Assembly: GCA_022813865.1 (NCBI GenBank)
Contig: JALDZX010000070.1
Span: forward strand, 1 to 64,000
Length of the DNA: 64,000 nucleotides
Direction of reading: 5' to 3'
Origin: Xylographa opegraphella
Lineage: Eukaryota
Positions 1,932 through 48,446 of this stretch are shown here, in pieces. A program made the position numbers and the translations under genes. The number at the start of each line of letters is the position of its first letter. Positions within the stretch are counted from its first letter, which is position 1. Below the pieces are notes generated by a model that had not been told where the DNA came from, searched no databases, and saw nothing but the letters and a program-made list of their open reading frames with translations.

Positions 1932-2890
1932 GATTTGAGCGCATTGATTAGTGGTTTCATTGACAGCTGGGTGTTACACAAAGCCCCACGTGTCTGACCT
2001 GTTGTTATATTGAGGTCCTATGACACCTGTTTCGAATGTTGCTTGCGCCGTTGACGGGTACTTGGCAGACACAAGAGGAGAGCAAAGCAAAGCCCCCACT
2101 CACTTTGTTCAGCCAAAGTTGTTACTAACGTTATGCAAGACTTGTATCCTGTCGAGTACTTTGTCAACCCTGTATAGCTCCATCCTCCCACGCCTCCGTC
2201 TACATCGCCCCTCTAAACTTTCCCCCAGTCCCTCTAGCCCTCGCCTCCAATTTACGATTCCATTCCCCAGCCCCAATTGTCACTCCCATACCTGCCACCG
2301 CACGCCCAGCAACAATCCTCGCAGCGACGACCTTGAGTTCGCCACTACAAGAAGTCCGGGTTCCAAGCCTACAGCGCGGCGGATGTCCCAGGTCAAAATA
2401 ATACAAAGACTACGTCAAGGGCGTGAGACGCATAAATCGTAGCAGTTATCAAATCCGCTCCGGATATCCAAATTATTATGGATTGATCGGCGGGCAAGCG
2501 TAGCTTCGTACAAGAGATGAAGATCCTGCCGGCGCACATCACGAATCAGAGGAACAAGTAGATCGAGAATCAGCCACCCGCGCGCAATAGAGACATCTGA
2601 GGATCTCCATAGTCAGAACTTGAAATGTCAGCTGGAATTGTTAACCGCATCCATGTTCACGGTAGATACAAATCCCATCGCATACCTGGATATTGCTTAG
2701 CCGTTACGATGCCACTATAGCGTACACGTATTCAATATCAGGCTGTATCACTCTTCACCCATATATTTCTATATACTTAGTAGAATTCCTCCGTCAGCCT
2801 AAATTAGTTCACATCGCCGTGCTCCTCTAGCGGAACCTTGATATGCCCTGGTTATTTGCTCAATGGCCCCCAACAGCAAGACACACTTTC

Positions 2891-3009
2891 ACATACGACC
2901 ACAGACTCAAGAGAACTGGCTATCCCGTCCGCTCTGGCATACATAACCTTGAGATCGGCTGATTAGTAGTTGGGTGGGTGACCACCAGCGAATCCCAGCT
3001 GTTGTATGT
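2891..3009 (+). rRNA. Dispersed 5S rRNA gene
   Basis: Begins ACATACGACC and contains TCCCGTCCGCTC and TTAGTAGTTGGGTGGGTGACCACCAGCGAATCCC. Ends GTTGTATGT, complementary to the 5' end, and is followed by T-runs (Pol III terminator). Confidence 0.95.
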
Positions 3010-3268
3010 TTTTGCTTTTTGCTTGAGTTTGGTGGTCCTTGGGTGGTGTCTACCCTCCTGTACTGTGCTTGTTTAGACCCTTTTCAATGTTTTTAATCTC
3101 GGCCCAGCTGCATGTTTGGCGTGTTTCTGTGAATGAGAATTCGGCTTGTGATGTCATTTGACCCAATTGATGAGCTTCCTTATTGGCAACAGGGCTGTCT
3201 TCAAACGTTTCTGGAGGTATCATCTAAGCATAGTGGACTCTTTGTACTCTTTGTAAACGCTCAAGAGG

Positions 3269-4298
3269 TCATTTATTTCCGAGTAACGGCGTTGCTTCAG
3301 AAGGCGGCGAAGCTTCTTCCTCGCCAGCATTATCTACCACTCCACTCGAGGAACTTCCACTCTCATCTCCCTTCCTCCTCTTGCTGTTTCGATGCTCGTA
3401 GAATATGCCCAGACCTAGCACGATGCCCTGCAACGTCCCCGTGACAACATAGATGAACCACGTGCTCCAACCCGGCCAACCTACTCTAGCGAACAGACTC
3501 CCAGCCCAGACAAAGCTTCCTGGGGTCTGCATACACATCATCGGAATGCTCAAACTCCCGACATGTTTGAGCCGCCATGTTGTGAATATTTGCGGGAAGT
3601 ATTGGATGCTCGCCAGAACAGTTGCTATAAGACCTAAAGCGTTCGCATATGCCTGTAGATGTACTGGGTATCGCATGACGACGACGGCGCTGATAATCGC
3701 AGTTATCACTGCATGGCCTGCACTGATGCCGGCTACGCCGAGAGCCTCGCGGTATGAAGGAGTAGCGTTGAGAGGCTCAGGAGGCGCGAGTGCAGTGGCG
3801 CGCGGGAAGAAGACAAGGAACAGAACCAGTCTATATTGCTGTAAGCATCATACTCCTGCTCGGTCGAGGCTGCCCGGATGGAATGGGTCCACGTACATGC
3901 CAGCGAAACATGCCCATACCAGTCCGACTTGCAGTATTCCCAACAGACTAGCAAAACAGTCGAAGCCGCTGATCTCCTTGCAGCACGCAACATCTGCTCG
4001 GCTCGCTGGGAGGACGAGGATATTTGCGAAAATGCATGTACCGGCTGTTGTGCCTAGGAGGAGGAAGTATGGGGATATTCCTTCGGAAGACCGCCTCACG
4101 ATGATGCGGTAGTACTGTGAGAGGTATGAGGCGAATATTCCGAAGAGTAGGAATCTATGCTATTGTCAGGTATTGCACTGCGAAAAGGGTTGGTAGATGC
4201 GCTTGCATTGATAAGCCGAAGTTCAGGTAGCTAGGTGATGCCAGAGCAGTGCAGCGGTCACTGCCAATACTCCTTATATGCTGCGAGAACAGCGACAT
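3269..4298 (-). CDS. PQ-loop repeat membrane protein; 3 exons
   Basis: Spliced frame MSLFSQHIRSIGSDRCTALASPSYLNFGLSIFLLFGIFASYLSQYYRIIVRRSSEGISPYF... with a second loop QYFPQIFTTWRLKHVGSLSIP, several TM segments and a C-terminal EATPLL dileucine-type motif. Introns at 4155-4206 (GC-AG) and ~3831-3896. Confidence 0.85.
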
Positions 4299-4438
4299 CT
4301 TGGTTATTGCAGCGTAGCTGCTCTAAGGATGAGGGCGTCCAAATCGAACTTCGGCCGCTAGTGGCGCAGTATTTCCGCTCCGATCCGTGGAATATTCCCT
4401 CTTCGGGTTTAGCTCAAGAGGGGCCTTGGCTTTCCACA

Positions 4439-4478
4439 ACGCTGCATATTGAGCGAGAGGTCCCCTCACACTGGATCA
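4439..4478 (+). repeat. 40-bp dispersed motif, copy 1 (copy 2 at 12551-12590, minus strand)
   Basis: acgctgcatattgagcgagaggtcccctcacactggatca matches the reverse complement of 12551-12590 at 34/40 positions without gaps. Confidence 0.7.
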
Positions 4479-5374
4479 CCTGGTATTGAATGTTGACGTT
4501 CCCACATCAGATGGTAGCCTTGGTAGACTCGGCGAGTACAACGACAAGATGTTGGCTCAGTTACAGCGTCGTGTTATGAACGGTGTTTACTATGTGACGT
4601 CGTGCAATAGAAGTGTAAGGCTAGCCTTATGCAGCTCCATCAACCAGCCACCTCGGAGAATTTCATCCATAACCATACGAGACCAAATCTGCTGCTTGTA
4701 TATCCTGATATTTGGTGTAGTCCTCTTGAGAAAGATCCCAATTTGGGCGATACTATGGAGATTCTACCACTTGTGGACTTGTGGAACCTCGATTTCTCTC
4801 TGCTGATCTTGGATAAGCTATGTCGGCCTTGGTATTTACAGTAAAGCCATATACGCGCCTACGGACCACTGCATTAATATGCCGAATCTGATACACACTA
4901 CGTCGTACGGCTCATCAATTCGAAGTCCGCGACTACTACCTTTTGTACAGGAAGACAGGTCCTGCCACGATGGCGCGTCTTCGCTAGCATATCCATCCCT
5001 CCTACCATGTGAGCTGCTAAAGACCCAGCCCGAGGGAACATCATAAAGTATTGGCAAACGCTACAGATCCGCATCCGTCGATGTACACTTATTGAATATA
5101 CCATTCCGAAACGCCCCAAAGACTCCATATCTTCAACCAGCCGGCAACGTCCCGGCACGCACAGAGCGCACGCTTTTACCACCACCGTTCTTTCTATAAA
5201 CATCATACCGGTCTCCACTGCCGCAAATCAGACATCGACCATGCCAGGAAGCCATACCTACCCAATTAACGCTGAAGTAAACATTTGCAAAAAGGAACCA
5301 GGCGCAAATGAGCCGACCCCGAACCTTCCAATATACAATGCAAAATCACTCTTTCCCACAGGCCGACCAAACAT

Positions 5375-6350
5375 TCAACTCAGTTCAGCAGGACCCCTGT
5401 GCAAGTCGTCGACCCCCTCAGCCGGCAACTCCGTTCCCCTAAGCCCTTGCATCTCATGTATCCCACCCTCCTTGCCGACGGGCACATAGCCCGCCCCTCT
5501 ATAGTTCGGCTCGTACACCGGCCTCTTATATCCCGCCGCTCCATAGTCCATTCCCGTATTTTCCCCCGCCGCACCTGATCGCTGATGGACACCCCCTGTC
5601 CACTTCCGCCTCTGCCTCGGCTTCCACACCAGGAAGTACAACAACCCAGCGATCAACGCCAGCCCAAGGGGTATGCCCACCCCGGCACCCACCCCGATCG
5701 CAACCGCATTGTTCGTACTCGCCGCCGCCGAGGACGTCACGGCCGACGGGCTGCTGGTCACAGACGGAGGGAAGAACGCAGTGCTCGTGAGGATGAGACT
5801 CGTCGCCGTGGAGGTCATACTCGTTGTACTCGTCGTGCTCGCCATCGACGACACACTCACGATAGTTCCCACCCCCAAATTAAACACCAGCGTCGAGTTA
5901 CTGCAACAGTCGGCATTGCTAAGCCCATAGCAGCAGAAATTGCCCGGGCCGGCGCTCGCGCACGGCTGCACGCCGTTACCGCCACCTAGAGAACAAAAAC
6001 AACACTCGTCAGCACTTGCACTCACGAGTACAAAGGCCCTTGGGGGACGGCAGCATACTGTTCGCGCACTGCTTCAAACACTCCGGGCTCGACCACGTCG
6101 GGTCCGTGCAATCCCCCACGTAGAACGGTGTAATGGCGCCCGTGATGTTCGGCCCTGGCGCGCATAGCCCGTTGCTGATGCACTCGAAGCCGGGCATGCA
6201 GCACGCGCTGTAGGTCTGGTCCGGGTTACAGGCGAAGTTGGCGGACTGGATGCCGTCGGCTGCGTAGCAGATCGGAGAGGAGGCGGCGGAGGTGAAGGGG
6301 CAGAGGAGGAGGAGGAGGAGGAAGGAGACGAGCGAGGCTGGCGCCGACAT
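5375..6350 (-). CDS. Single-pass cell-surface protein: signal peptide, Cys-rich domain, Ser/Thr stalk, TM helix (Mid2/Wsc-like architecture); 2 exons
   Basis: MSAPASLVSFLLLLLLCPFTSA signal, CYAADG..C..CC...C.SNGLC..CTDPTWSSPEC domain, intron 5986-6058, S/T-rich stretch, AIGVGAGVGIPLGLALIAGLLYFLVW followed by KPRQRRK. The start could be up to 9 codons further upstream. Confidence 0.8.
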
Positions 6351-6672
6351 TGCTGCTACGAGGTGCATTGTTTTCATACTCCGTACAAAAAACACGCTAA
6401 TAGAATGCAAAAGAACTCGAAGTCATGGGATTGGGGATTTGGCCGCTCGCTGCGCAAGCGGTGGTGTTGTATGTACAGAGCGCAGGAAACACAGAAGAGA
6501 TCAAAAGGAACGGATGGCCCACGCCGATTGCGCCGTGCTTAATGCACCAGCGAGGCTCAAACCCGAAGGATGCTGGGTTGTTGTCAAGCGAGCGCTGTAG
6601 TTGGTGCTGTTGAGCGGTCGGCATGGCTCTGCTAGGCCAAAGGGCGTTAGTACATGAAGCTGAGGCTGTTAA

Positions 6673-7120
6673 AGCGGCGAATTACTCGCCTACCCCCCTC
6701 TTACCCTGGTATTTACTTCGCTGCCCCCAAATACCCTTGCAAAACCTTTGTACAAGTGACTTATATTACTTTATGATTGGCTTAGGCCACTGTTTATATC
6801 CGTATAATATCCTTGCGTGTAGGTGTTAGCATTCTTTTCACGCGTCGTGATAACGAGATCCGGGGCAGCGAGGTCCGGGGTAGCATACAGCTGGATTTAG
6901 AAGCAGCGAGATCCGGGGCAGCGAGGATCAAAATAGCGAGGTTCAGAGCCGCGAGGTTTTGAGCGCAGCAGTATCGGGGTATTTTCAATAGCAATGAACC
7001 CAACCAAATAGATCAAGATACGCAAGGGAACAGCGGCGAAAATGTGCCTTTGCTAGGGTATTTGGGGGCTGCGGTGTAAATACCAGGGTATGAGGGGGGT
7101 AGGCGAGTAATTCGCCGCTG
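6673..7120. mobile_element. Non-autonomous DNA transposon/MITE-like element with 71-bp inverted repeats
   Basis: 6673-6743 matches the reverse complement of 7049-7119 at 66/71. The right copy lies in a 90-bp unit (7031-7120) bounded by its own 10-bp inverted repeat cagcggcgaa/ttcgccgctg. No transposase and no clean target-site duplication. Confidence 0.65.
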
Positions 7121-7450
7121 TCCAGGGAGAGCTGTGCCACGAACCTTGTGCCCCTGTAGAAGACATGAGAAGGCTTTACGGTAAGCGACGGCTATTATTG
7201 GTTGTCAGCTGTGTTTCGGTCTGGGAGTGAGAGGACCTAATATTGTCAGCATATTTTCGTATCATGAAAAAACATAGACGCCAGTCTTTCAGGCGACAAG
7301 CTACGGTTTTCTTCAAAAGGATCGCTTAAGTACCTTACTGAGCATGGCTAGCAAGTCGAATGGACAAGAGAACAGCGATGTGTCAACGACTCTGATAGCA
7401 CAGTGACTTGATGAAAACGAAAATCAATGCTGGGTAAAGTGATGCTATGA

Positions 7451-7468
7451 TATATATATATATATATA
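7451..7468. repeat. (TA)n microsatellite
   Basis: tatatatata tatatata run downstream of the carboxypeptidase gene. Confidence 0.9.
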
Positions 7469-7527
7469 TTTATCTGACGATCAAACTAAAATCATGTTTT
7501 TGGATTATGGGCCTCCCATATATATGC

Positions 7528-9314
7528 TCAGATAGTATCAACCCGACCAAGCAACCACCGAATATGCTGCAGCGCAACTCGCGGCTGGAACTCCGGTTGC
7601 TCGTGTCCACTCAAGTACGTCTCAGCCCACATGAGACCGCGTTCGAAGTGCTGGATACCCATGACGCCTTGCGGACCATCCAGACCCTTGGCCCCGTTCG
7701 CTGCGAAAACAGCTTGGTATTGTAAGTCTGGGGTTTCAATGACAATCGGCTTGGAAGGCGTGCTATTGAAGCCGAGCGCCCCGTTCCATGTCATGTTTTG
7801 GATGGCCATCAAGGTGCCGTTCGTGAGGATGATGAAATCAAGATCCCCGTTGCTGACAAGAACCCGGTTGGTGGCTTCGATAACTTGCGGGAGGACGTGC
7901 TGAATAGGGTCGGCGGACAGATCTCCTTCGCTTTCTGGGCCACCTCCGCCCCCGAGGAAAACGTTGTGCTCACCGCACACGCTCCAGTCAATGTTGGGAG
8001 CGTGCATCGCCGTCTTCACGTCAGAACGATTAAAGTAAGTGGTTGCACCGGCAGGACTGTAGACTAGCTCTGTGGGGAAGCTTAAAACGTCCCAAAGGAG
8101 TGGACACTGCTGGTTCACCTCATAGATGTTGAAGCATGGGTTGTTCTCAAAGGCTTCACTGTTGATGAGGTCGAAAACATCGCAGCTTTCATCCGCGGTA
8201 CTGCTGTAATTAAAATACCTTGGCGGCTGAACGCTCGGTGGAGGGAATGTAAGATATTTCTCTCGATACTCTGCGTAGCCGCACGACTTGTCGAGCGCTT
8301 CCAATTGCGCGAGGAAGGTGTCATTGAAACCGAATAGGTTGTTATTAGCCTGCACGAAGGGAACGGCCGGGATCTCTTCCTGCACATAATTGAAATCTCC
8401 AATACAAGGGTCATAGACCAAGGCGCCTGTTCATGGAAAATTTAGTATCATAAGAAGTTATGAAGTGCAATGGATTCAACACACCTTTAAGATCAAAGTA
8501 TTCCTTGTCCTTTTGGTTGAGCATGGCCGCCGAGATGTAGGGCACATATCTCCCGGCGTAACTTTCTCCGGTGACATAGATCTTGAAGTTCTTAATCCCA
8601 AAAATTTCCTGGAAATTCTTGAAGAAATGGACAAAATCTAAAGCAGTCTCTTCTTGCGTTTTCGCAGTGATCTCTCCGATCGAAAAGCCCGTACCAACCG
8701 GTTGATCGACCCTGGTATTATTAGTCAAATGACCCTGTTCGATGTCCTAGTGTGCAAAGTGGCGGTTGATCGTTCCGAACGTACCACAGCATATTAGTGA
8801 CATTGACCCAGGAGTACTCGTTAACCACCGGCAGGTAGGTGCCTGGTTGCCAGAGAAACCTGCCAGTTTCTTGGAAGAAAGAATCAAGAGAGGAGCATCC
8901 AGGACCACCATTCAGGAAAATTGTGACTTCGTCAACCGGTTTTCCGATGGTTGGCTGAAACACGAAGAATAAAGCCCTGGAGGCGTTGTTCGTGATTGGA
9001 ACCAGACCTGAGTACATTTCACCGATGTCATAGTTCACGTCGGGCAGCGATTCCACTCGATACTCTGAAATATCATTTGTAAGCCACTGCGTCTACAGTA
9101 ATATCGAGGTAGGTAATTGCTTACCGGAGGTTTCGTTGTTAAGAAAACGGTAAGCCGATATGTCTGATTCCCTCTTCATGTTCTGGTGATCCCGCACGAA
9201 CTTTTCAGCAGCACGAGGACCCCTACGAGCTAGGTCACCAAATCTACCGCCTGAAACTCCACTTAGAAGTATGCTGCAGGCCACAAAGGCTGCACAAAGA
9301 GACCTGGAAAACAT
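7528..9314 (-). CDS. Secreted serine carboxypeptidase, peptidase family S10; 4 exons
   Basis: Signal peptide [22 protein letters not shown]. Motifs [31 protein letters not shown] (catalytic Ser), GDLD (Asp) and GHEQP (His). GT-AG introns at ~9065-9124, ~8712-8786 and ~8427-8484. Confidence 0.95.
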
Positions 9315-11002
9315 CCTGGAAAAGCTCCAGAGCAATTTCCAAGCTCGCAAGACAAGACAGAATAAAACCGTGGAAGGCGGTGCTCCTCTTTTGTAGGAAA
9401 ATCACAAGCAGGAGAAGAGAGCAGCTTCGCCATTTTTGTAGCTCTCTGAGAAATAGCTCACGCCATTCGAGTAAGTGATAATGAACGTAGCTTATCTTAG
9501 CCTCGAAAGCTGCCTGGCATTTCACCTCGATGAACAATTCTGTTGGTCAAGTATGAAGCTTGACATCATTGAGCATATCGGACGGACATTATTCTTGTGG
9601 GACACCTGTTGATCCACAGTGAGATCGGAAGGTGTGGAATGGGTGGCGGGTTGGGTACAGGATTGAGCATCCTTCCGCCTTCCCTATCAAGCTAAGGACG
9701 ATGGAGATACAGGGCCCGATTGCAGCGTGCAACCTCATTTTCCAGGTCAACCTGCAGGCTGCAGGCTGCAGGATGCAGTCTCTCGGTCGCCGGTTAGAAT
9801 ACCCCGCTACTGGGAAGGGATTTCACCCGTCAGACAGTGTAAATTCGCATTTGTGTGTTTGAGGAGGATGTGACGACGGTTGCGCAGCCTAGAGAGGTCA
9901 TCGGTCGGCAGACATCTTCACTCGACGACGAACAGGAGTCTTCTCCATTCCCCGAGCAGATATGTCCATCAACGGTATTCGAGCTCTCGAATCATATTCA
10001 GATCTGCCCTTTACTCGACGCAACCATTGAAAATGAAATGTATACGAAGTCGAGTCATGGGGACGTCACTGCTAAAGTTCGCTTAGAATACGGTATCTTT
10101 CTCCGCACCTGAGCAAGCGTTACCGGATTTGGAGTATCGAAACCACTATCTAAGGTATGGAATTCTTATCGCTCACCAGTCGGACCTTCCGCACCCTTCC
10201 CTTCTCCACCCGGGAGGCCAGCTTTAACAGACAATCCTTTCACCATGCATGTACCCCTTCATCGACGGTTGATGAGCGCTTACAACATGTACCAGTGGGA
10301 GTGCTTGAATGACAGCCGGATAGCCACTGGAATTGACAGTTTGGAGGTGTGAGAGTGACAATATTAAATGTGCGAATGGCGAAGGCTGAATAGCCGACAG
10401 CTTTGCCATCCAAGAGAGAGTAGTAAAGCATCTGGCGTTTTTCACGAAGCGTAAGAGGACGATTCAAACGACAACTCGATGTCGAGTAAATCAATGGATG
10501 GTAATACATATACATACCAGCATATAATGAATTTATCCATACAAGTAGGCTTGGTTCCCTCCCTTTCCGTTCGAAGTCCAGACCTAGGTACGGCAAATAT
10601 TACATATTCAGAAATTGTCTCTTCACAGAGAACACAAAGTCGTTGCAATAGAGGTCAGGCTGTTCTTTAACTCTGAACACTCATCATTCACTTCATTAGT
10701 ATCAAGCGGAAGATGGACCCCTATGGTCAGTAAGATACCTCATAGAATAGAGTAACAGCTCTTCTGGAATTGACTCGGTGCCTCCAAGCTAGCACTCGCT
10801 TGAGCTTTGAGGCTCACGATGTTTTCATTGGCGGCCTCTTGGCACAGCCCTAGAGACCCTGGATTCACTTCCTGATTCTAGCCGCGAGAGCTTCTCAGAT
10901 GCCCACCGATTCCAATTCGAGACTCGACCAATAGTTGCATCAGTTTTATAAGGCAAAAGGGTTGCTTTTGTTTTTGAGCCGCTGAGTCTTATATATGCCA
11001 TC

Positions 11003-12030
11003 ATGCGCCTCACGGCTGAGCTCATCCAATCCTCCCTTTCCTACCTCAACCCCCTCAAGGAGCGCGAATTAGATCTTAGAGGTGCGTACAAGCTGAAAAG
11101 AGCAGATACTACACTTTGAAGGAATGAGCTCCATTGATATCATTTCCGAGATATGCAGGCCACAGAATACCCGCGGTGGAAAACTTGGGTGTTGCAAAAG
11201 TTTGTCTATTGGCCTAAATCTGTGTATATTGCTTATCCGAGGATCAGGACCAAGACGCAATCGACTTCACAGACAACGACATCACTGCTCTCGCCAACTT
11301 CCCCCTTTCGCCACGACTACATACCCTACTGCTTGCACGCAATCGTGTTACCAGTATTCAGCCTAACCTCGCAACTTCCTTACCGAATTTGACTACCCTT
11401 GTCCTGACATCAAATAACTTTGCGGAGTTGGCGGACTTGGATGCGCTAAGACAGTTCTCGAAGCTTACACATTTGACACTGCTGGAGAATCCGGTCACGA
11501 GAAGAGAAGTTCGTCCATGGAGTCGTGATGGAATGGATCGGGGCTAATTGGACCATCTCTACAGAACTATCGTCACTGGATCATATGGCGTTGCCCAAGT
11601 GTCCGTTTCCTCGACTATCAGAAGGTGAAAGACGTAGAGCGTGAGAAGGCGACTGAGCTCTTCGGGACCGTCCAGGAGCCGTCAGCGTTGGCTTCGAAGG
11701 CATGTTTGCTTCGTTTTCACCATTCCTTAACATTGAAACGCTACAAATATGCTGCCTCGTTTACAACGTCTTTCTGTAGGATGCTAACTATCTGTTCAAC
11801 AGATCATGGGCATCAAATCCCGCACCTTTGATATCCCGAACAACGCCTCCACGCCAGTCAACGGTATGAAGTCCTACCGCGTCAAACTCACAGAAAAGGA
11901 GAAGAAGCGGGTTGAAGACTTGATCCGTAACGCAAAAAGTCTGCAAGAAATATCGCGGCTGGAGAAGGAGCTGAACGAAGGGCGGATACCGGGCGGTGCG
12001 ATGGGAGGTGGGGATGACATGGAGGAGTAG
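11003..12030 (+). CDS. LEA1: U2 snRNP protein A' (leucine-rich repeat); 5 exons
   Basis: Spliced MRLTAELIQSSLSYLNPLKERELDLRGHRIPAVENLGVAKDQDAIDFTDNDI...LENPVTRRENYRHWIIWRCPSVRFLDYQKVK...IRNAKSLQEISRLEKELNEGRIP. Introns at ~11082-11158, 11200-11247, ~11509-11564 and 11700-11802 (GC-AG). Confidence 0.95.
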
Positions 12031-12550
12031 AGTATGCATAGCTAGAACAGCAAGAAATCAAAAGTGTATTAGGTCCTCTCTACTACTGCATATCGTGACT
12101 GAGCAATGAGGTTGGCCGAACGGAAAAGGTCCAAATCCATACTTCCTTTTCTATAATAAATTCAAATTTCATTCCAAGGCAACCTGATACTTGCTCGTCC
12201 CGTTTCAACAGGATCGCTACGCCTGACCCCAGATATCTGGGATGCCGAAGCAGTTCCAGAGAACAACGATAAGCACAAACCCAATAAAAAAAGACCCCAT
12301 GTATAGAGCAGACATATCTTCGCTCCTGACAACCTAGAGACATTACCCAACCACCAAGGCACACCTCTTCTCACATATCCCTTCTCAAGCTTCCTTTCTC
12401 CTCTGTAAGACCCTCTGTAAAACAAGCTGTAGACCTATCACATAAGTAGTAAGAGCCGTTTCGTTCGATCTTGTTTCCAGATTCCATCCACGTCGTGGCT
12501 GGCACAGGTCACTTTGCTAGATCGGGGCACGCGCTCAGGAAGCTTGAAAA

Positions 12551-12590
12551 TGGTCCAGCGTGAGGGGGCCTCTCGCTAAATATACAACGT
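12551..12590 (-). repeat. 40-bp dispersed motif, copy 2
   Basis: Minus strand acgttgtatatttagcgagaggccccctcacgctggacca, 34/40 identical to 4439-4478. Contains the hairpin AGCG-A-GAGG/CCTC-A-CGCT. Confidence 0.7.
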
Positions 12591-12621
12591 GCTGCAGAGT
12601 CACAGAGCCACAAAAAAGAAA

Positions 12622-12755
12622 TCGACGGGTGCAGGATTCGAACCAAGGACCTAAAAAGCACGCTAGCGTGGGTATCCCAGGTCTGAGCCTCAACAATCGA
12701 GGAATTCTCCGGAGAACAGAAGTCTTGCTGATGCCACAGCTCCACCACCACGATC
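12622..12755 (-). pseudogene. Degenerate tRNA-like gene (Arg-TCT-like) with a ~60-nt insert at the canonical intron position
   Basis: A-box-like TGGTGGAG, anticodon-arm-like CAAGA-CT-TCT-G (TCT at 12720-12718), AGGTC variable region, perfect B-box GGTTCGAATCC (12644-12634), then TTTCTTTTTT. Acceptor and T stems pair imperfectly. Confidence 0.55.
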
Positions 12756-12788
12756 GTGCAAGAAGCCCAAAAAAAGAAAGTGATTGTT

Positions 12789-13005
12789 GCATACAGCTAG
12801 TTTGGTTTCACTGACCACCCAGATCTGCACTTGGCGCAATGCTTGGCACCCTCTGAGCTTGGGATTAGATTTCGTCCTAGGAACAACCTGCCTATGGGAG
12901 TACTTTGCATCCCCAGGGACCTACTAACAAACCTAGGGAAGGTAGGTTGTATGGCGCAAGCCTCTTGGCAAGATTGCCCAATTTCCCGACCCCTTGGCCG
13001 TATGC
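12789..13005 (-). ncRNA. Expanded 5S rRNA-like sequence (217 nt) with a ~100-nt insertion; function unknown
   Basis: The ends GCATACGGC/GCTGTATGC form a 9-bp helix I. The first 40 nt match the 5S at 2891 at 23/40 without gaps. TTAGTAG is retained, and the 3' block CAGTGAAACCAAACTAGCTGTATG parallels CAGCGAATCCCAGCTGTTGTATG. TATATA at -31..-26 and T7 downstream. Confidence 0.65.
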
Positions 13006-13030
13006 ATCTGCCAAAACTTCTTATTTTTAA

Positions 13031-13036
13031 TATATA
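13031..13036 (-). promoter_or_regulatory. TATA box upstream of the 5S-like sequence
   Basis: Minus strand GAGGTATATATTAAAAATAA. TATATA lies 26-31 nt upstream of the inferred +1 at 13005. Confidence 0.5.
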
Positions 13037-13080
13037 CCTCAACTCCTGCACCTCCTGGTAAGGCTGCACACTTGGCCATC

Positions 13081-13730
13081 GCCCACACCTCGATGCACTT
13101 CCTCATTGCTCGTAGGTACACCTTGTTGTTGCCTACCTTACCTTATACTCTTCTTCTTTATTGCATGCGCACCTGTCCATCTTGCCCATGCATCTCTTTG
13201 CGACCGATGCACTCGGTCGTGCGACTGTCCACACGCTTCCTTCCTGCCCACACACTTCCTCATTGCCCATACACTTCGTCTTCGCCCACACAGTGTGCTG
13301 CTCTCCCCTATACTCTGTATTGCGACCGATGCACTTTGTCACGTGACAGCCCACACACTTCTCATTGCCCATACACTTCGTCGTCGCCCACACATTGTAC
13401 TGCTGTCCACGATACTCTTTATTGCAACCGATGCACTTTGTCGCGCGACAACGCATATATCATCCTCGCTCTCAGATCTTCTCACACACGTCAACAGCTC
13501 ACAATACGAGCCCCAATCACACGCAAAGTTCCATGTTGCCATGCTCTTTCTTTGGGACTAATGCGCATCATCGCACAACTGCGCACACAACTCAATGTCG
13601 CCATTGTATATTCGCCACCCACCAAACACGAAACACTTCCGTTATCCCCAACACAGTTTCTCATCGCCTCTTTCGTTTACTTATTGCCCGAGGTCTTGAT
13701 TGCGGTCCATGAACTTGGTCGTGCGACCAC
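13081..13730. repeat. Imperfect tandem array (~100-150 bp period) with a hairpin-forming core
   Basis: Core TTGCGACCGATGCACTYKGTCGYGCGAC or degenerate versions start at 13198, 13320, 13422, 13552 and 13700. The block gcccacacactt(c)ctcattgcccatacacttcgtc(t/g)tcgcccacaca is also repeated. Confidence 0.85.
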
Positions 13731-14331
13731 GCACATGTCCCTGCCACCATCACATAGAGGCTTATATACATGTCTCGTCGACACGTATTTCAATTTTGCG
13801 CCCACGTCATCGAGACATCTGGGCCTGCATACGATGATAGCCCTCCATCAAGGTTCGCTTCGACACAAGTCATCTGGTCAGCACAAGGTATATCGTTATT
13901 GATCGGGTCGAGATTCTTCACGAAAGCAGTCGGAAGGCCTCTGTCCGACCACATGAGGTTGAAATATGCATTAGCGCCATTTTACCCCACAATTCCACCT
14001 CCCTTGGCGCCAAGAGTCTGCAGTCTCATACATCCCAGTCCAGTTTGCCGGAAGCCAATAATCGGTCGTCCATGCAAATAGAATTGCTATCCCGACCCAG
14101 TCATCAATCAGTCATCTATCATGAAGATATCTGATTCTACAAAAATGCAACGACCATCTCCCCATATATCAGTCCTTCGCATTCTGCCTATATCCAATGG
14201 ACCCTAACAGTGTAACCGGCCTCTAACTAGCCCTCACTTAGACCTGCCTCTCAGCTACCCCAGCATGACCTTCTAATCTCGTCACCATCTCCCCAGCTGT
14301 TCCATCATCCACAACTTCCACAACTTCCACA

Positions 14332-15892
14332 ATGCCCGAACGCAAGAGCATCGTGTTCTTCCACCCCGATCTCGGCATCGGTGGCGCCGAGCGCCTCATC
14401 ATCGACGCTGCCGTCGGCCTGCAAACGCTCGGCCACCGCGTCACGATCTTCACCTCCCACCGAGACCTCACGCACTGCTTCGACGAAGCCCGAGATGGTA
14501 AAATCCCGCCATCCTCCCTCCCTATGCCCTTTCCAGAGAACCGCTTAGCTAACCCAGAATTTCCTCCGCCAGGCACGCTCGACGTCCGCGTGCGGGGCGG
14601 CTTCCTGTTCCCCGCGACGCTTCTCGGGCGCTTTCAGATCCTGCTCACCATCCTGCGGCACTACCACCTGCTCTGCACTATCTCGCTGAACGGCGAGCTT
14701 GCTGCGCTGAAGCCGACGGCTTTCTTCATCGACCAGCTCTCTGCGGGCATTCCCTTCCTGCGCTACCGTTTCCCCGAAACGCATATATTGTTCTACTGTC
14801 ATTTCCCGGACCTGCTTCTCGTGAAGCAGCGCCAGCGGTGGGTGACGCGCCTCTGGAGGCTGCCGTTCGATGCGGTGGAGGGGTGGAGCATGCAGGGCGC
14901 GGATCGGGTGGTGGTGAACAGCGAATTTACGAAAGGGGTGGTGGAGGGAGTGTGGAAGGGATTGGGGGGGAAGAGAGGCGTGGGGGTCGTGTATCCGTGT
15001 GTGGATATCAAGAGTGATAATGGCGGGGACCAGAAAGCGTTGTCGGAGAAGGATTTGTGGGGCGGCAAGAAGATTGTCTTGAGTATCAATCGTTTCGAGA
15101 AGAAAAAGGATGTCGGTCTGGCGATCAAAGCGTTCGCAGGGCTCAATGCGAATGACAGGCGCGGAACTCGGCTTGTCATTGCTGGTATGAGCAGTGGTTC
15201 TATTGTATCCGGCGTACGTGTGCTAAATCTGCGTAGGAGGGTATGACAACCGAGTGCCGGAAAACGTTTCCTACCATGCCGAACTCCTCTCGCTAGCCGA
15301 GAGTCTCAGCCTCACCACCGCTACCGCGAAGAACATCATCACTGCTCTAAGTATCCCGGACGAGATAGAGGTGCTGTTCCTGCTCTCCATACCCGGCCAA
15401 CTCAAGTCGATGCTCCTCGACGCTGCAAAACTACTCGTCTACACACCCTTGAACGAGCATTTCGGCATTGTCCCCCTCGAAGCCATGCTCTCCGGAGTGC
15501 CAGTTTTGGCCGCCAATTGTGGCGGCCCGCTCGAAACCGTCGTTGATGGCCAGACAGGTTGGCTGCGGGACCCAGAGAAGGTGGAAGACTGGACGGAAGT
15601 GATGCGTCAGGTCTTATTTGAGACTTCTGCCGCTCAGCTGAAAGAAATGGGCGAGGCAGGCAGAGAGCGCGCGGAAACGGAGTTTTCGGAATCGAAGATG
15701 TCGCAAAAACTGGACCACGAACTGGAAGATATGGTCAGTAGACCGCGTGTCAAGGCGCTGGAGATACAAGATATCTTGTTGCTTGTGGGTATTTTTGGCT
15801 TGTGGGTTGTTGTGATGGTCAGCTTATTGAGAGGGCCCTTAGTAGCTGCGGCAACAGCTTCTCGACAAGCTGCAGCGTCTCAAGAAGTGTGA
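14332..15892 (+). CDS. ALG2: Alpha-1,3/1,6-mannosyltransferase ALG2 (GT4); 3 exons
   Basis: FFHPDLGIGGAERLIIDAAVGLQ, FYCHFPDLLL, LSINRFEKKKDVGLAI, GGYDNRVPEN and YTPLNEHFGIVPLEAM. Introns at 14498-14572 (in frame) and 15185-15236. Confidence 0.97.
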
Positions 15893-47381: not shown

Positions 47382-47495
47382 TCCACCTTACATACCGGAT
47401 CCCAATGTAGTTTTATCCTCGCCCACGCAGTCTATCCATCCACCTTACAAACCAGATCCCAATTTAGTTTTATCCTCGTCCACGCAGTCTACCCA
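47382..47495. repeat. 57-bp tandem duplication (2 copies)
   Basis: tccaccttaca(t/a)acc(g/a)gatcccaat(g/t)tagttttatcctcg(c/t)ccacgcagtcta starts at both 47382 and 47439. Confidence 0.9.
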
Positions 47496-47570: not shown

Positions 47571-48446
47571 CTACCAACTCCCCCACAAATCCGCTGCTTC
47601 CAAGCCCCATATCTCCGCTCCTCGCCTATCAATACCAACCTGCCTCCCCACCCGGGGCATAGCCGCTCCCGCTGGCATATTGTTCGCGCCTGGAGTGGCG
47701 GCGTTCGGAAGGCCCAGCGGCTTGCCCATCGGACCGATCGGGGCGATCGGGGCGTGCGCGGCTGGGAGACGCGCAGCGCCGTTTGGCTTGCGGAGCGCGT
47801 CCTCTGGTTTGCGCAAGGCGTCTTTGGGGTTCCGTAGCGGCTCCTCTGGTTTGCGTGACAGCTTGCCAGCTTCCAGCCTCTTGGCCTCTTCTTGGCGGAA
47901 TCGACTTTGGTCCTTCTCGAAGGTCAGTCGCTCATGGCGGTACTTCTGGTCGCCGGCCCTGACCCTGGCTGTCTGCTGGCGGAACTTCCGATCCTCGTCC
48001 CCGAAGATGGCTGCCTCTTGCCGGAATTTCTGGCGCTCGGTGGGCTCCCGCGGAGGCTTTGCTAATCCTGCTTTCTTCTCTCGCTCTCCCGCCGCGAGCG
48101 CTTTTTCTTGTCCAGGTCGTGCTTCGGCGCCGGCGGGTTTGACGGGCGGTACGGGGACTTGTTCCGCTGCGGGCTTGACGGCTTCGACAGGCTTGGGGCC
48201 ACCCACGGGTGCTATAGCATCACGGGCCACAAGTTCGTCGCTTCTAATTTTGTGCATGCTTTCCGGGATAGTGACTTCCGCTTCGGCCCAGCGTTGGTGA
48301 AGATCATGGTCAAAGATATCGGAGTCCGGCTCGGGATCCCTTCCGTACAATTGTGCATCATCGATATCTCGAGCGTATATCGAGCGTGCGTAGCCTAGGC
48401 TGGGCACGAGTAGAATAGCGACCGTGACGGAGCGAGGCAGATGCAT
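47571..48446 (-). CDS. Orphan secreted protein with acidic pro-peptide-like repeats and 14-aa and 7-aa periodic segments
   Basis: MHLPRSVTVAILLVPSLGYA signal; IYARD, LYGRD, LHQRW and LVARD units; QKFRQE/RKFRQQ/QKYRHE/SRFRQE repeats; RKPEEPL/RNPKDAL/RKPEDAL repeats. Confidence 0.75.
   Translation of the reverse strand: MHLPRSVTVAILLVPSLGYARSIYARDIDDAQLYGRDPEPDSDIFDHDLHQRWAEAEVTIPESMHKIRSDELVARDAIAPVGGPKPVEAVKPAAEQVPVPPVKPAGAEARPGQEKALAAGEREKKAGLAKPPREPTERQKFRQEAAIFGDEDRKFRQQTARVRAGDQKYRHERLTFEKDQSRFRQEEAKRLEAGKLSRKPEEPLRNPKDALRKPEDALRKPNGAARLPAAHAPIAPIGPMGKPLGLPNAATPGANNMPAGAAMPRVGRQVGIDRRGAEIWGLEAADLWGSW

Follow-up and report, generated by a model that had tools for sequence, protein, structure and literature searches.

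The window analysed here is a stretch of 64,000 nucleotides (64 kb) of nuclear DNA of fungal type, taken from contig JALDZX010000070.1 of Xylographa opegraphella (positions 1 to 64,000). On its minus strand, in a spacer of about 2.3 kb between a LEA1-like and an ALG2-like gene, it carries two units that resemble genes of RNA polymerase III (Pol III), a 5S-like sequence and a tRNA-like sequence. From the features described below we conclude that both units are descended from Pol III genes and that neither is a working gene for 5S rRNA or tRNA. The reading that we prefer, with a probability of about one half, is that they are old relics of Pol III genes, forming a single-copy pair that is specific to this lineage.

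One relic comes from a 5S rRNA gene that has grown by about 100 nt, and the other from a tRNA gene that has grown by about 55 nt. They lie head to tail on the minus strand of the LEA1-like/ALG2-like spacer, and neither is able to encode a working 5S rRNA or tRNA. Each has its own Pol III-type signals, namely a TATA at −31 and a T7 run for the 5S-like unit, and a B box and a T6 run for the tRNA-like unit. Because these signals are separate, the units, if transcribed at all, would give two short transcripts and not one fused RNA. The pair would have originated by birth-and-death turnover of dispersed 5S and tRNA genes, the tandem array upstream would be an unrelated minisatellite-like repeat, and the motif downstream is the tail of a dispersed element of about 180 bp. 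We infer that both units lack an RNA function.

Anatomy and origin of the two units

The preliminary description of this DNA had listed a TATA, a 5S-like sequence, a T7 run, a tRNA-like sequence, a second T-run and a motif, and all of these are found at the positions it gave when the minus strand is read. By direct reading, the 5S-like unit spans 13005–12789 (217 nt, minus strand), and its hallmark motifs and a 9-bp terminal helix identify it as 5S-rRNA-derived sequence. It opens with the 5S 5′ end GCATACGGCCA (nt 1–11), contains GTTAGTAG at nt 78–85 and GGGTGGTCA at nt 186–194, and closes with the 3′ end GCTGTATGC (nt 209–217). The terminal helix is of the helix I type, forms nine out of nine pairs and closes both the minimum free energy and the centroid folds. 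Its first pair has changed on both sides relative to the local 5S gene, from A1/T119 to G/C. The first 67 nt of the unit form an arm where a 5S has its helix II/III arm. TATATA, followed by TTAAAAATAA, is located at 13036–13031 on the minus strand, 31 to 26 nt before the start of the unit at 13005; fungal 5S genes make use of an upstream TATA, and this element may be a TFIIIB/TBP site. On the other side, 13 nt past the 3′ end, there is a T7 run at 12775–12769 (minus strand) within CTTTCTTTTTTTG, a signal of the Pol III terminator type between the two units. Runs of six or more T are few on the minus strand of the window, 13 in all.

The paired conserved ends, followed by a T-run, are those of a 5S gene, but the CCGTCCGCTC region (loop C/helix III) has been replaced. 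The unit is about 100 nt longer than a 5S, and its loop C/helix III sequence is not conserved. In the box C stretch, about 10–11 of 18 positions agree by a manual count. The alignable parts are identical to the local true 5S gene at 50 of 80 and 24 of 34 positions. Transitions are about as frequent as transversions among the differences, with no bias like that of repeat-induced point mutation, and the G+C content is 50%. The unit is thus 5S-derived without an intact coding sequence or structure, as are the 5S pseudogenes treated in the relevant passages of PMC5555474.

The tRNA-like unit starts after a gap of 33 nt on the same strand and spans 12755–12622 (134 nt), and its hallmarks together with a sub-threshold ARAGORN model mark it as tRNA-derived sequence. 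It has a perfect B box, GGTTCGAATCC, at 12644–12634, and an A-box-like sequence, TGGAGCTGTGG, at 12744–12734. The latter differs from the consensus at two positions, and no A box within one substitution of TRGCNNANNGG was found in the unit. Its acceptor-like stem forms 5 of 7 pairs, the D-arm is GCTG/CAGC, the T stem is weak, and there is an insert of 55 nt. At 80% of its default threshold, ARAGORN models 12749–12624 as a 71-nt cloverleaf plus the 55-nt insert, in which the D-arm is good, the anticodon stem is poor and the T stem has two mismatches. In this model the insert sits at a non-canonical position, 32/33. As the same threshold gives four other calls in 2.5 kb, the model describes the unit and proves nothing. 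The second T-run, TTTCTTTTTTG at 12621–12611 (minus strand, direct reading), starts directly past the 3′ end of the unit and contains T6 at 12617–12612. The unit therefore has the B box GGTTCGANNCC and a terminator a few nucleotides past the acceptor end, as a tRNA gene does, and lacks a default-threshold cloverleaf as well as an A box and paired acceptor, anticodon and T stems. Its T-run lies 16 nt past the B box; in a real tRNA-Gln gene from one of the related loci treated below (L050) the distance is 15 nt. A likeness of the unit to the tRNA-Gln genes of the related loci was looked for and rejected, as there is none beyond the T loop.

Search of Rfam at E≤10 gave no 5S match to the one unit and no tRNA match to the other, either in 12000–14500 or in the 421 bases of 12600–13020. 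In a sliding scan with normal gaps against the local 5S gene on both strands of the window, the 5′ half of the 5S-like unit was matched by 9 other places and the 3′ half by 43, and in a sliding alignment with cheap gaps the unit fell outside the top 25. The names 5S-like and tRNA-like used in the preliminary description therefore hold for the combination of hallmarks, but not for family models or for the alignment of the 5S halves, whose scores are window noise.

The hallmarks were scanned for in 571,278 bases of fungal DNA on both strands (1.14 Mb), consisting of the window and 70 related loci. The 5S set required the 5′ decamer, TTAGTA at +50–110, a helix of at least 8 of 9 pairs within 90–330 nt and a run of at least five T within 30 nt. 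The decamer occurred at four sites, two of which had all the hallmarks. These two were the true 5S gene of the window (length 119) and the 5S-like unit (length 217, helix 9/9). None of 300 block-shuffled windows contained the full set. The B box pattern occurred three times in the 1.14 Mb, in the tRNA-like unit, in the real tRNA-Gln gene of L050 and at one site without any other tRNA feature, and a B box with a T-run at tRNA distance was found at a rate of 0.0033 per shuffled window. The scan and the shuffled windows place the combination of features beyond chance, so the origin of the units is not random. Together with the sub-threshold ARAGORN cloverleaf they also bear out the earlier proposal that both units were derived from Pol III genes.

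Two other proposals about the units were not confirmed. The inserts had been called structured, and the fold energies of the two units are no better than those of shuffled sequences (z +0.59 and +0.68); this test has little power, as the true 5S gene itself reaches only z −0.66. The terminator contexts of the two units had been called similar, and their 75% identity over 28 nt is not significant (E 5.8).

Copy number and the dispersed element

To estimate copy number, contigs of X1, the only run that contains the stretch and probably that of the source genome, were matched to 2700–14400 of the window at 80% likeness; the summed contig depth is not a copy number, and gaps in cover prove nothing. 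One long contig with a depth of 158.3 covers 4440–14400. No contig beyond it adds depth in the bins of 12866–14038, and hence none does over 12866–13005, the first 140 nt of the 5S-like unit. This single-contig result is valid only for copies at least 80% alike, and it applies to those 140 nt and to the array. The method does detect short repeats, since the bin of the true 5S gene sums to 1477 and the bin 4264–4654 to 6393. Extra depth was seen in the bin 12475–12865, which holds the tRNA-like unit (271.7 against 158.3). The copy-number check that had been proposed therefore gave no second copy at least 80% alike over 12866–14038, but left one bin with extra depth.

At least part of this extra depth is due to the tail of a dispersed element at 12551–12602, because an opposite-strand joint links 4385 with 12593 and the two places match at 79%; the 3′ end of the tRNA-like unit may add to it. 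A full copy of the element, about 180 bp long, lies at 4305–4484 on the plus strand, delimited by loose contig ends at 4304/4306 and 4484/4485 and matched by many contigs. Thirty different contigs cover position 4336, with a summed depth of 9754 against 158 in the flanks. The 40-bp motif at 12590–12551, described before as dispersed, is indeed so, as it belongs to a 52-nt fragment (12602–12551, minus strand) with 79% identity to 4427–4478, the 3′ tail of the element. We also considered the body of the tRNA-like unit as a homologue of the 4305–4484 element, and this was ruled out since only the last 52 nt align.

The element has no Rfam family except a 13-nt chance match. It contains an A-box-like TAGTGGCGCAGT, and opposite-strand joints occur within it (4304 with 4422, and 4360 with 4484). 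These suggest an internal inverted symmetry like that of a miniature inverted-repeat transposable element (MITE).

A composite repeat family, one of the two possibilities offered in the preliminary description, is not supported by these data, as the bins of 12866–14038 have single-contig depth and only the 52-nt motif belongs to a dispersed family. The cassette is not taken for a repeat family because it has single-contig depth over 12866–14038 and true repeats have many contigs. A gapped pattern of the three 5S-like motifs had no match in the metagenome collection. Runs X2 and X3, from other organisms of the same study, did not cover 12084–14038 at 80% likeness, which says nothing about absence.

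Possible readings: relics, live RNAs or a TFIIIC site

Loss of both genes is suggested by the mismatched acceptor, anticodon and T stems of the ARAGORN model and by the failure of Rfam to match either unit even when given only the 421 bases. It is in keeping with the abundance of 5S pseudogenes in filamentous fungi, which make up 18–83% of the 5S sequences (Rooney and Ward 2005, as cited in the passages of PMC5555474 that deal with them). Several points weigh against it. In simulations of uniform neutral decay at 30–40% divergence, a fully paired 9-bp helix survived in 0.3–1% of cases, an 11-mer in 0.4–2% and a T7 run in 3–8%, and the present locus still has its helix, a perfect B box, both T-runs and its TATA, none of them damaged. 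Such a pattern is the one that selection on Pol III signals or on the end-structure of an RNA would leave. This argument is softened because the units were noticed through exactly these intact features, and it is weakened by the high frequency of pseudogenes in filamentous fungi, as given in the same passages of PMC5555474. In addition, the loss of function of both units is itself something we infer from their sequence, and the copy-number evidence concerns only copies at least 80% alike and leaves the bin 12475–12865 with extra depth. Since the terminal helix, the B box, the TATA and the T-runs are intact where the sequence around them has diverged, some activity of Pol III or TFIIIC may persist.

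The two units may instead be exapted and still active. The TATA would then drive a small RNA of about 230 nt, 5S-like but expanded, and the A-like and B boxes a tRNA-derived one of about 140 nt. Both RNAs would be new, and each would end at the T-run of its unit. We hold this reading to be rather unlikely. It would account for every Pol III signal being intact and correctly spaced amid diverged sequence, a retention that uniform decay makes improbable, for the terminal helix being kept despite a change on both sides, and for the arm that the first 67 nt form at the place of the 5S helix II/III arm. It is opposed by the absence of a thermodynamic signal (z +0.59 and +0.68), although the true 5S gene shows none either, by the changed box C region (about 10–11 of 18 positions agree), and by the two mismatches in the T stem and the two in the A box relative to the consensus. 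A fuller version seems less likely again. In it, the 5S-derived RNA would have the terminal helix, the II/III arm and a third arm expanded by about 100 nt, the tRNA-derived RNA would have the 55-nt insert, and the B box would perhaps double as a TFIIIC boundary. The B box, perhaps with the TATA, might also act purely as a DNA element, that is, as a boundary like those at extra TFIIIC (ETC) sites, between the 3′ end of the LEA1-like gene and the ALG2-like promoter. The 11-nt B box is perfect in a unit whose stems are broken, and it is situated in a 2.3-kb spacer of two tandem Pol II genes, both as expected of such a site. However, the D-arm and a T-run spaced from the B box exactly as in a tRNA gene indicate that a gene once stood here rather than a site made for this role, and a single B box is indistinguishable from a relic, so we regard this explanation as quite improbable.

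Two further explanations have very little in their favour. A composite mobile element, for instance a short interspersed nuclear element (SINE) headed by 5S or tRNA sequence, or else a repeat family, could be supposed from the dispersed-element tail that directly follows the tRNA-like terminator and from the extra depth in the bin 12475–12865. However, the bins of 12866–14038 are at single-contig depth where true repeats have many contigs, a Pol III transcript would end at the internal T7 or T6 run and not reach the tail, homology to the element of about 180 bp is limited to 52 nt, and the gapped pattern of the 5S-like motifs had 0 matches in the metagenome collection; it is very unlikely that the cassette is mobile. 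Equally hard to credit is that the resemblances are chance in ordinary intergenic DNA. The lack of an Rfam match, the 5S halves at noise level (9 and 43 other places) and an ARAGORN call also at noise level would agree with chance, but the hallmark set was found in 0 of 300 shuffles and the B box with T-run in 0.0033 per window, the units are 33 nt apart on the same strand, and in 1.14 Mb of real fungal DNA the combinations are shared by true genes only. The weight left after these readings goes to others not listed here.

Considered as relics, the units can be compared with several known systems. Like the 5S pseudogenes of filamentous ascomycetes, the 5S-like unit is a dispersed single 5S-derived sequence that has lost its coding sequence and structure, and the true 5S genes of the source genome are dispersed too. 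The fungal 5S pseudogenes described in the cited passages of PMC5555474 are truncated. Here, in contrast, both termini, the terminal helix, the TATA and the terminator are kept, the sequence is about 100 nt longer, and a tRNA relic is adjacent. The tRNA-5S genes of Yarrowia likewise bring close, co-oriented units of tRNA and 5S type together in an ascomycete. According to the portions of PMC2566860 that describe these dicistronic genes, the tRNA is 5′ of the 5S, no terminator lies between them, one fused transcript is made, and no such fusions were found in the other ascomycetes checked there. The present locus differs from that type by the reversed order, 5S before tRNA, by the T7 run between them (12775–12769) and by the fact that neither unit is intact. 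The units are not regarded as fused or dicistronic because of that T7 run.

At ETC sites, as presented in parts of PMC12409998, conserved (extended) B boxes are bound by TFIIIC without TFIIIB or Pol III and serve as barriers or insulators. The locus resembles them in that its B box belongs to no working tRNA gene and lies between Pol II genes. Unlike them, it has kept a tRNA-like terminator and D-arm. What defines an ETC site is occupancy by TFIIIC in the absence of Pol III, together with an extended B-box motif; here a B box is present. Heads derived from Pol III genes, with added sequence, are also what the units have in common with SINEs. Those derived from 5S or tRNA genes are multi-copy and have no internal terminator, whereas here no second contig at 80% likeness was found over 12866–14038 and a T-run ends each unit. 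The kind of sequence is therefore known, and its form is unusual in that both 5S ends are kept, growth is internal and a tRNA relic adjoins.

If the units are relics, they are simply what the usual turnover of the dispersed 5S and tRNA genes of filamentous fungi leaves behind, and they are useful mainly as a warning that the hallmark motifs of Pol III can survive the loss of their genes. If they are still bound or transcribed, Pol III genes would have been recycled into new small RNAs or chromatin boundary elements, and the 5S-like unit would be a rare 5S derivative that keeps both ends while growing internally. A live exapted pair would mean that genes for ribosomal and transfer RNA had given rise to small RNAs of a class new to fungi.

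Surrounding sequence and related loci

The only match to a curated RNA family in the 64 kb is the true 5S rRNA gene at 2891–3010 on the plus strand (RF00001, 68.7 bits against a gathering score of 38), which served both as the reference and as the positive control. The source-genome run contains multiple copies of it, with a summed depth of 6200 at position 2920. At 2920–2921 all 5S copies of this run read CT, and the 5S contigs of two other organisms of the same study read GC. The 5S-like relic has GC at the aligned place, which hints that it is older than the local 5S variant. ARAGORN at its default threshold found no tRNA genes in the window, with or without introns.

The LEA1-like gene is on the plus strand, where the Pfam family LRR_9 (leucine-rich repeat of the U2A′ type) matches three exons at 10952–11828. 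The ALG2-like gene, also on the plus strand, starts at 14332 and encodes a GT4-family glycosyltransferase consistent with ALG2. The names LEA1 and ALG2 are given from these domains alone and should be taken as putative. As both genes are on the plus strand, the two Pol III-like units are antisense to both.

The repeat array proposed upstream of the 5S-like unit is real. Repeat finding, Tandem Repeats Finder (TRF) and palindromes delimit a degenerate tandem array at 13068–13741 (minus strand) with units of about 102–148 nt. It contains five copies of a 42-nt core at 13198–13741, two copies of a 95-nt repeat at 87% identity and a weak extra unit at 13088–13068; TRF gave a period of 102 with 2.0 copies and 89% matches. 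The array abuts the TATA-like element of the 5S-like unit and is 590–1260 nt upstream of the ALG2-like start codon. As a whole it folds no better than shuffled sequence (z −0.54). All four sites of the palindrome GTCRYGYGAC in the window are in the array, in four of the five core copies. These palindromes (13216–13727), one per repeat unit, are GTCGTGCGAC (twice), GTCACGTGAC and GTCGCGCGAC, and they stay symmetrical through paired changes. They could be sites for a dimeric transcription factor upstream of the ALG2-like gene.

We also considered the array as coding sequence and rejected this. It is crossed by a stop-free frame of 318 codons on the plus strand (12946–13902) and by one of 108 codons on the minus strand (13133–13459), neither of which has a Pfam family above the cut-off; the best match was DUF7225, with 16.9 bits where the cut-off is 27. 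Between the two 102-nt units there are many amino-acid changes and an indel, which speaks against coding. No ATG lies near the start of the 318-codon frame, which extends over the array, the TATA and the beginning of the 5S-like unit and most likely results from the strand-biased composition of the repeats.

Relatives of the ALG2-like protein are encoded by 70 metagenome loci, with at most 69% identity over the full query and 84–88% over short N-terminal pieces. None of these loci has DNA similarity to window 11518–14316, and when all 70 were scanned for the motifs, the DNA upstream of the ALG2-like gene gave neither a 5S-like nor a B-box site. The tRNA genes in them are downstream of that gene and not upstream (five loci), and the one 5S found among the 16 of the 70 loci given to Rfam is likewise downstream. 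In five loci (L022, L035, L038, L043 and L057) a LEA1-like gene is found upstream of the ALG2-like one but is oriented the opposite way, and the spacer studied here is therefore taken to be lineage-specific. In these five the LEA1-like gene is about 5.4 kb upstream (locus positions about 39–635), while the window has both genes in tandem, on one strand; the difference in orientation means that one lineage has undergone an inversion.

In related loci a tRNA-Gln(UUG) gene closely follows the ALG2-like gene, on the other strand. It carries an insert in L035 (7620–7766, minus strand), L038 (7620–7766, minus strand) and L057 (7655–7792, minus strand), and the comparison loci were L027 (2667–2754, minus strand) and L050 (7646–7736, minus strand). 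The tRNA-Gln genes of L035, L038 and L057 have an anticodon-loop intron and a D-loop insertion of 56–59 nt, and because of this insertion ARAGORN miscalls them as Arg or Glu with long introns. The ends of the insertion resemble GT...CTAAC/TTAAC...CAG, that is, signals of the spliceosomal type.

Elsewhere in the window there is an inverted repeat of 71 nt with 93% complementarity, whose arms (6673–6743 and 7049–7119) are 305 nt apart. One further contig of the source run matches 6683–6848, and an opposite-strand joint links 6711 with 7082. The repeat at 6673–7119 may be a MITE or a foldback element that exists in at least one more copy. Tandem repeats are also present at 47382–47495 (two copies of 57 nt at 91%) and at 47776–47855 (three overlapping 38-nt copies with 21-nt spacing).

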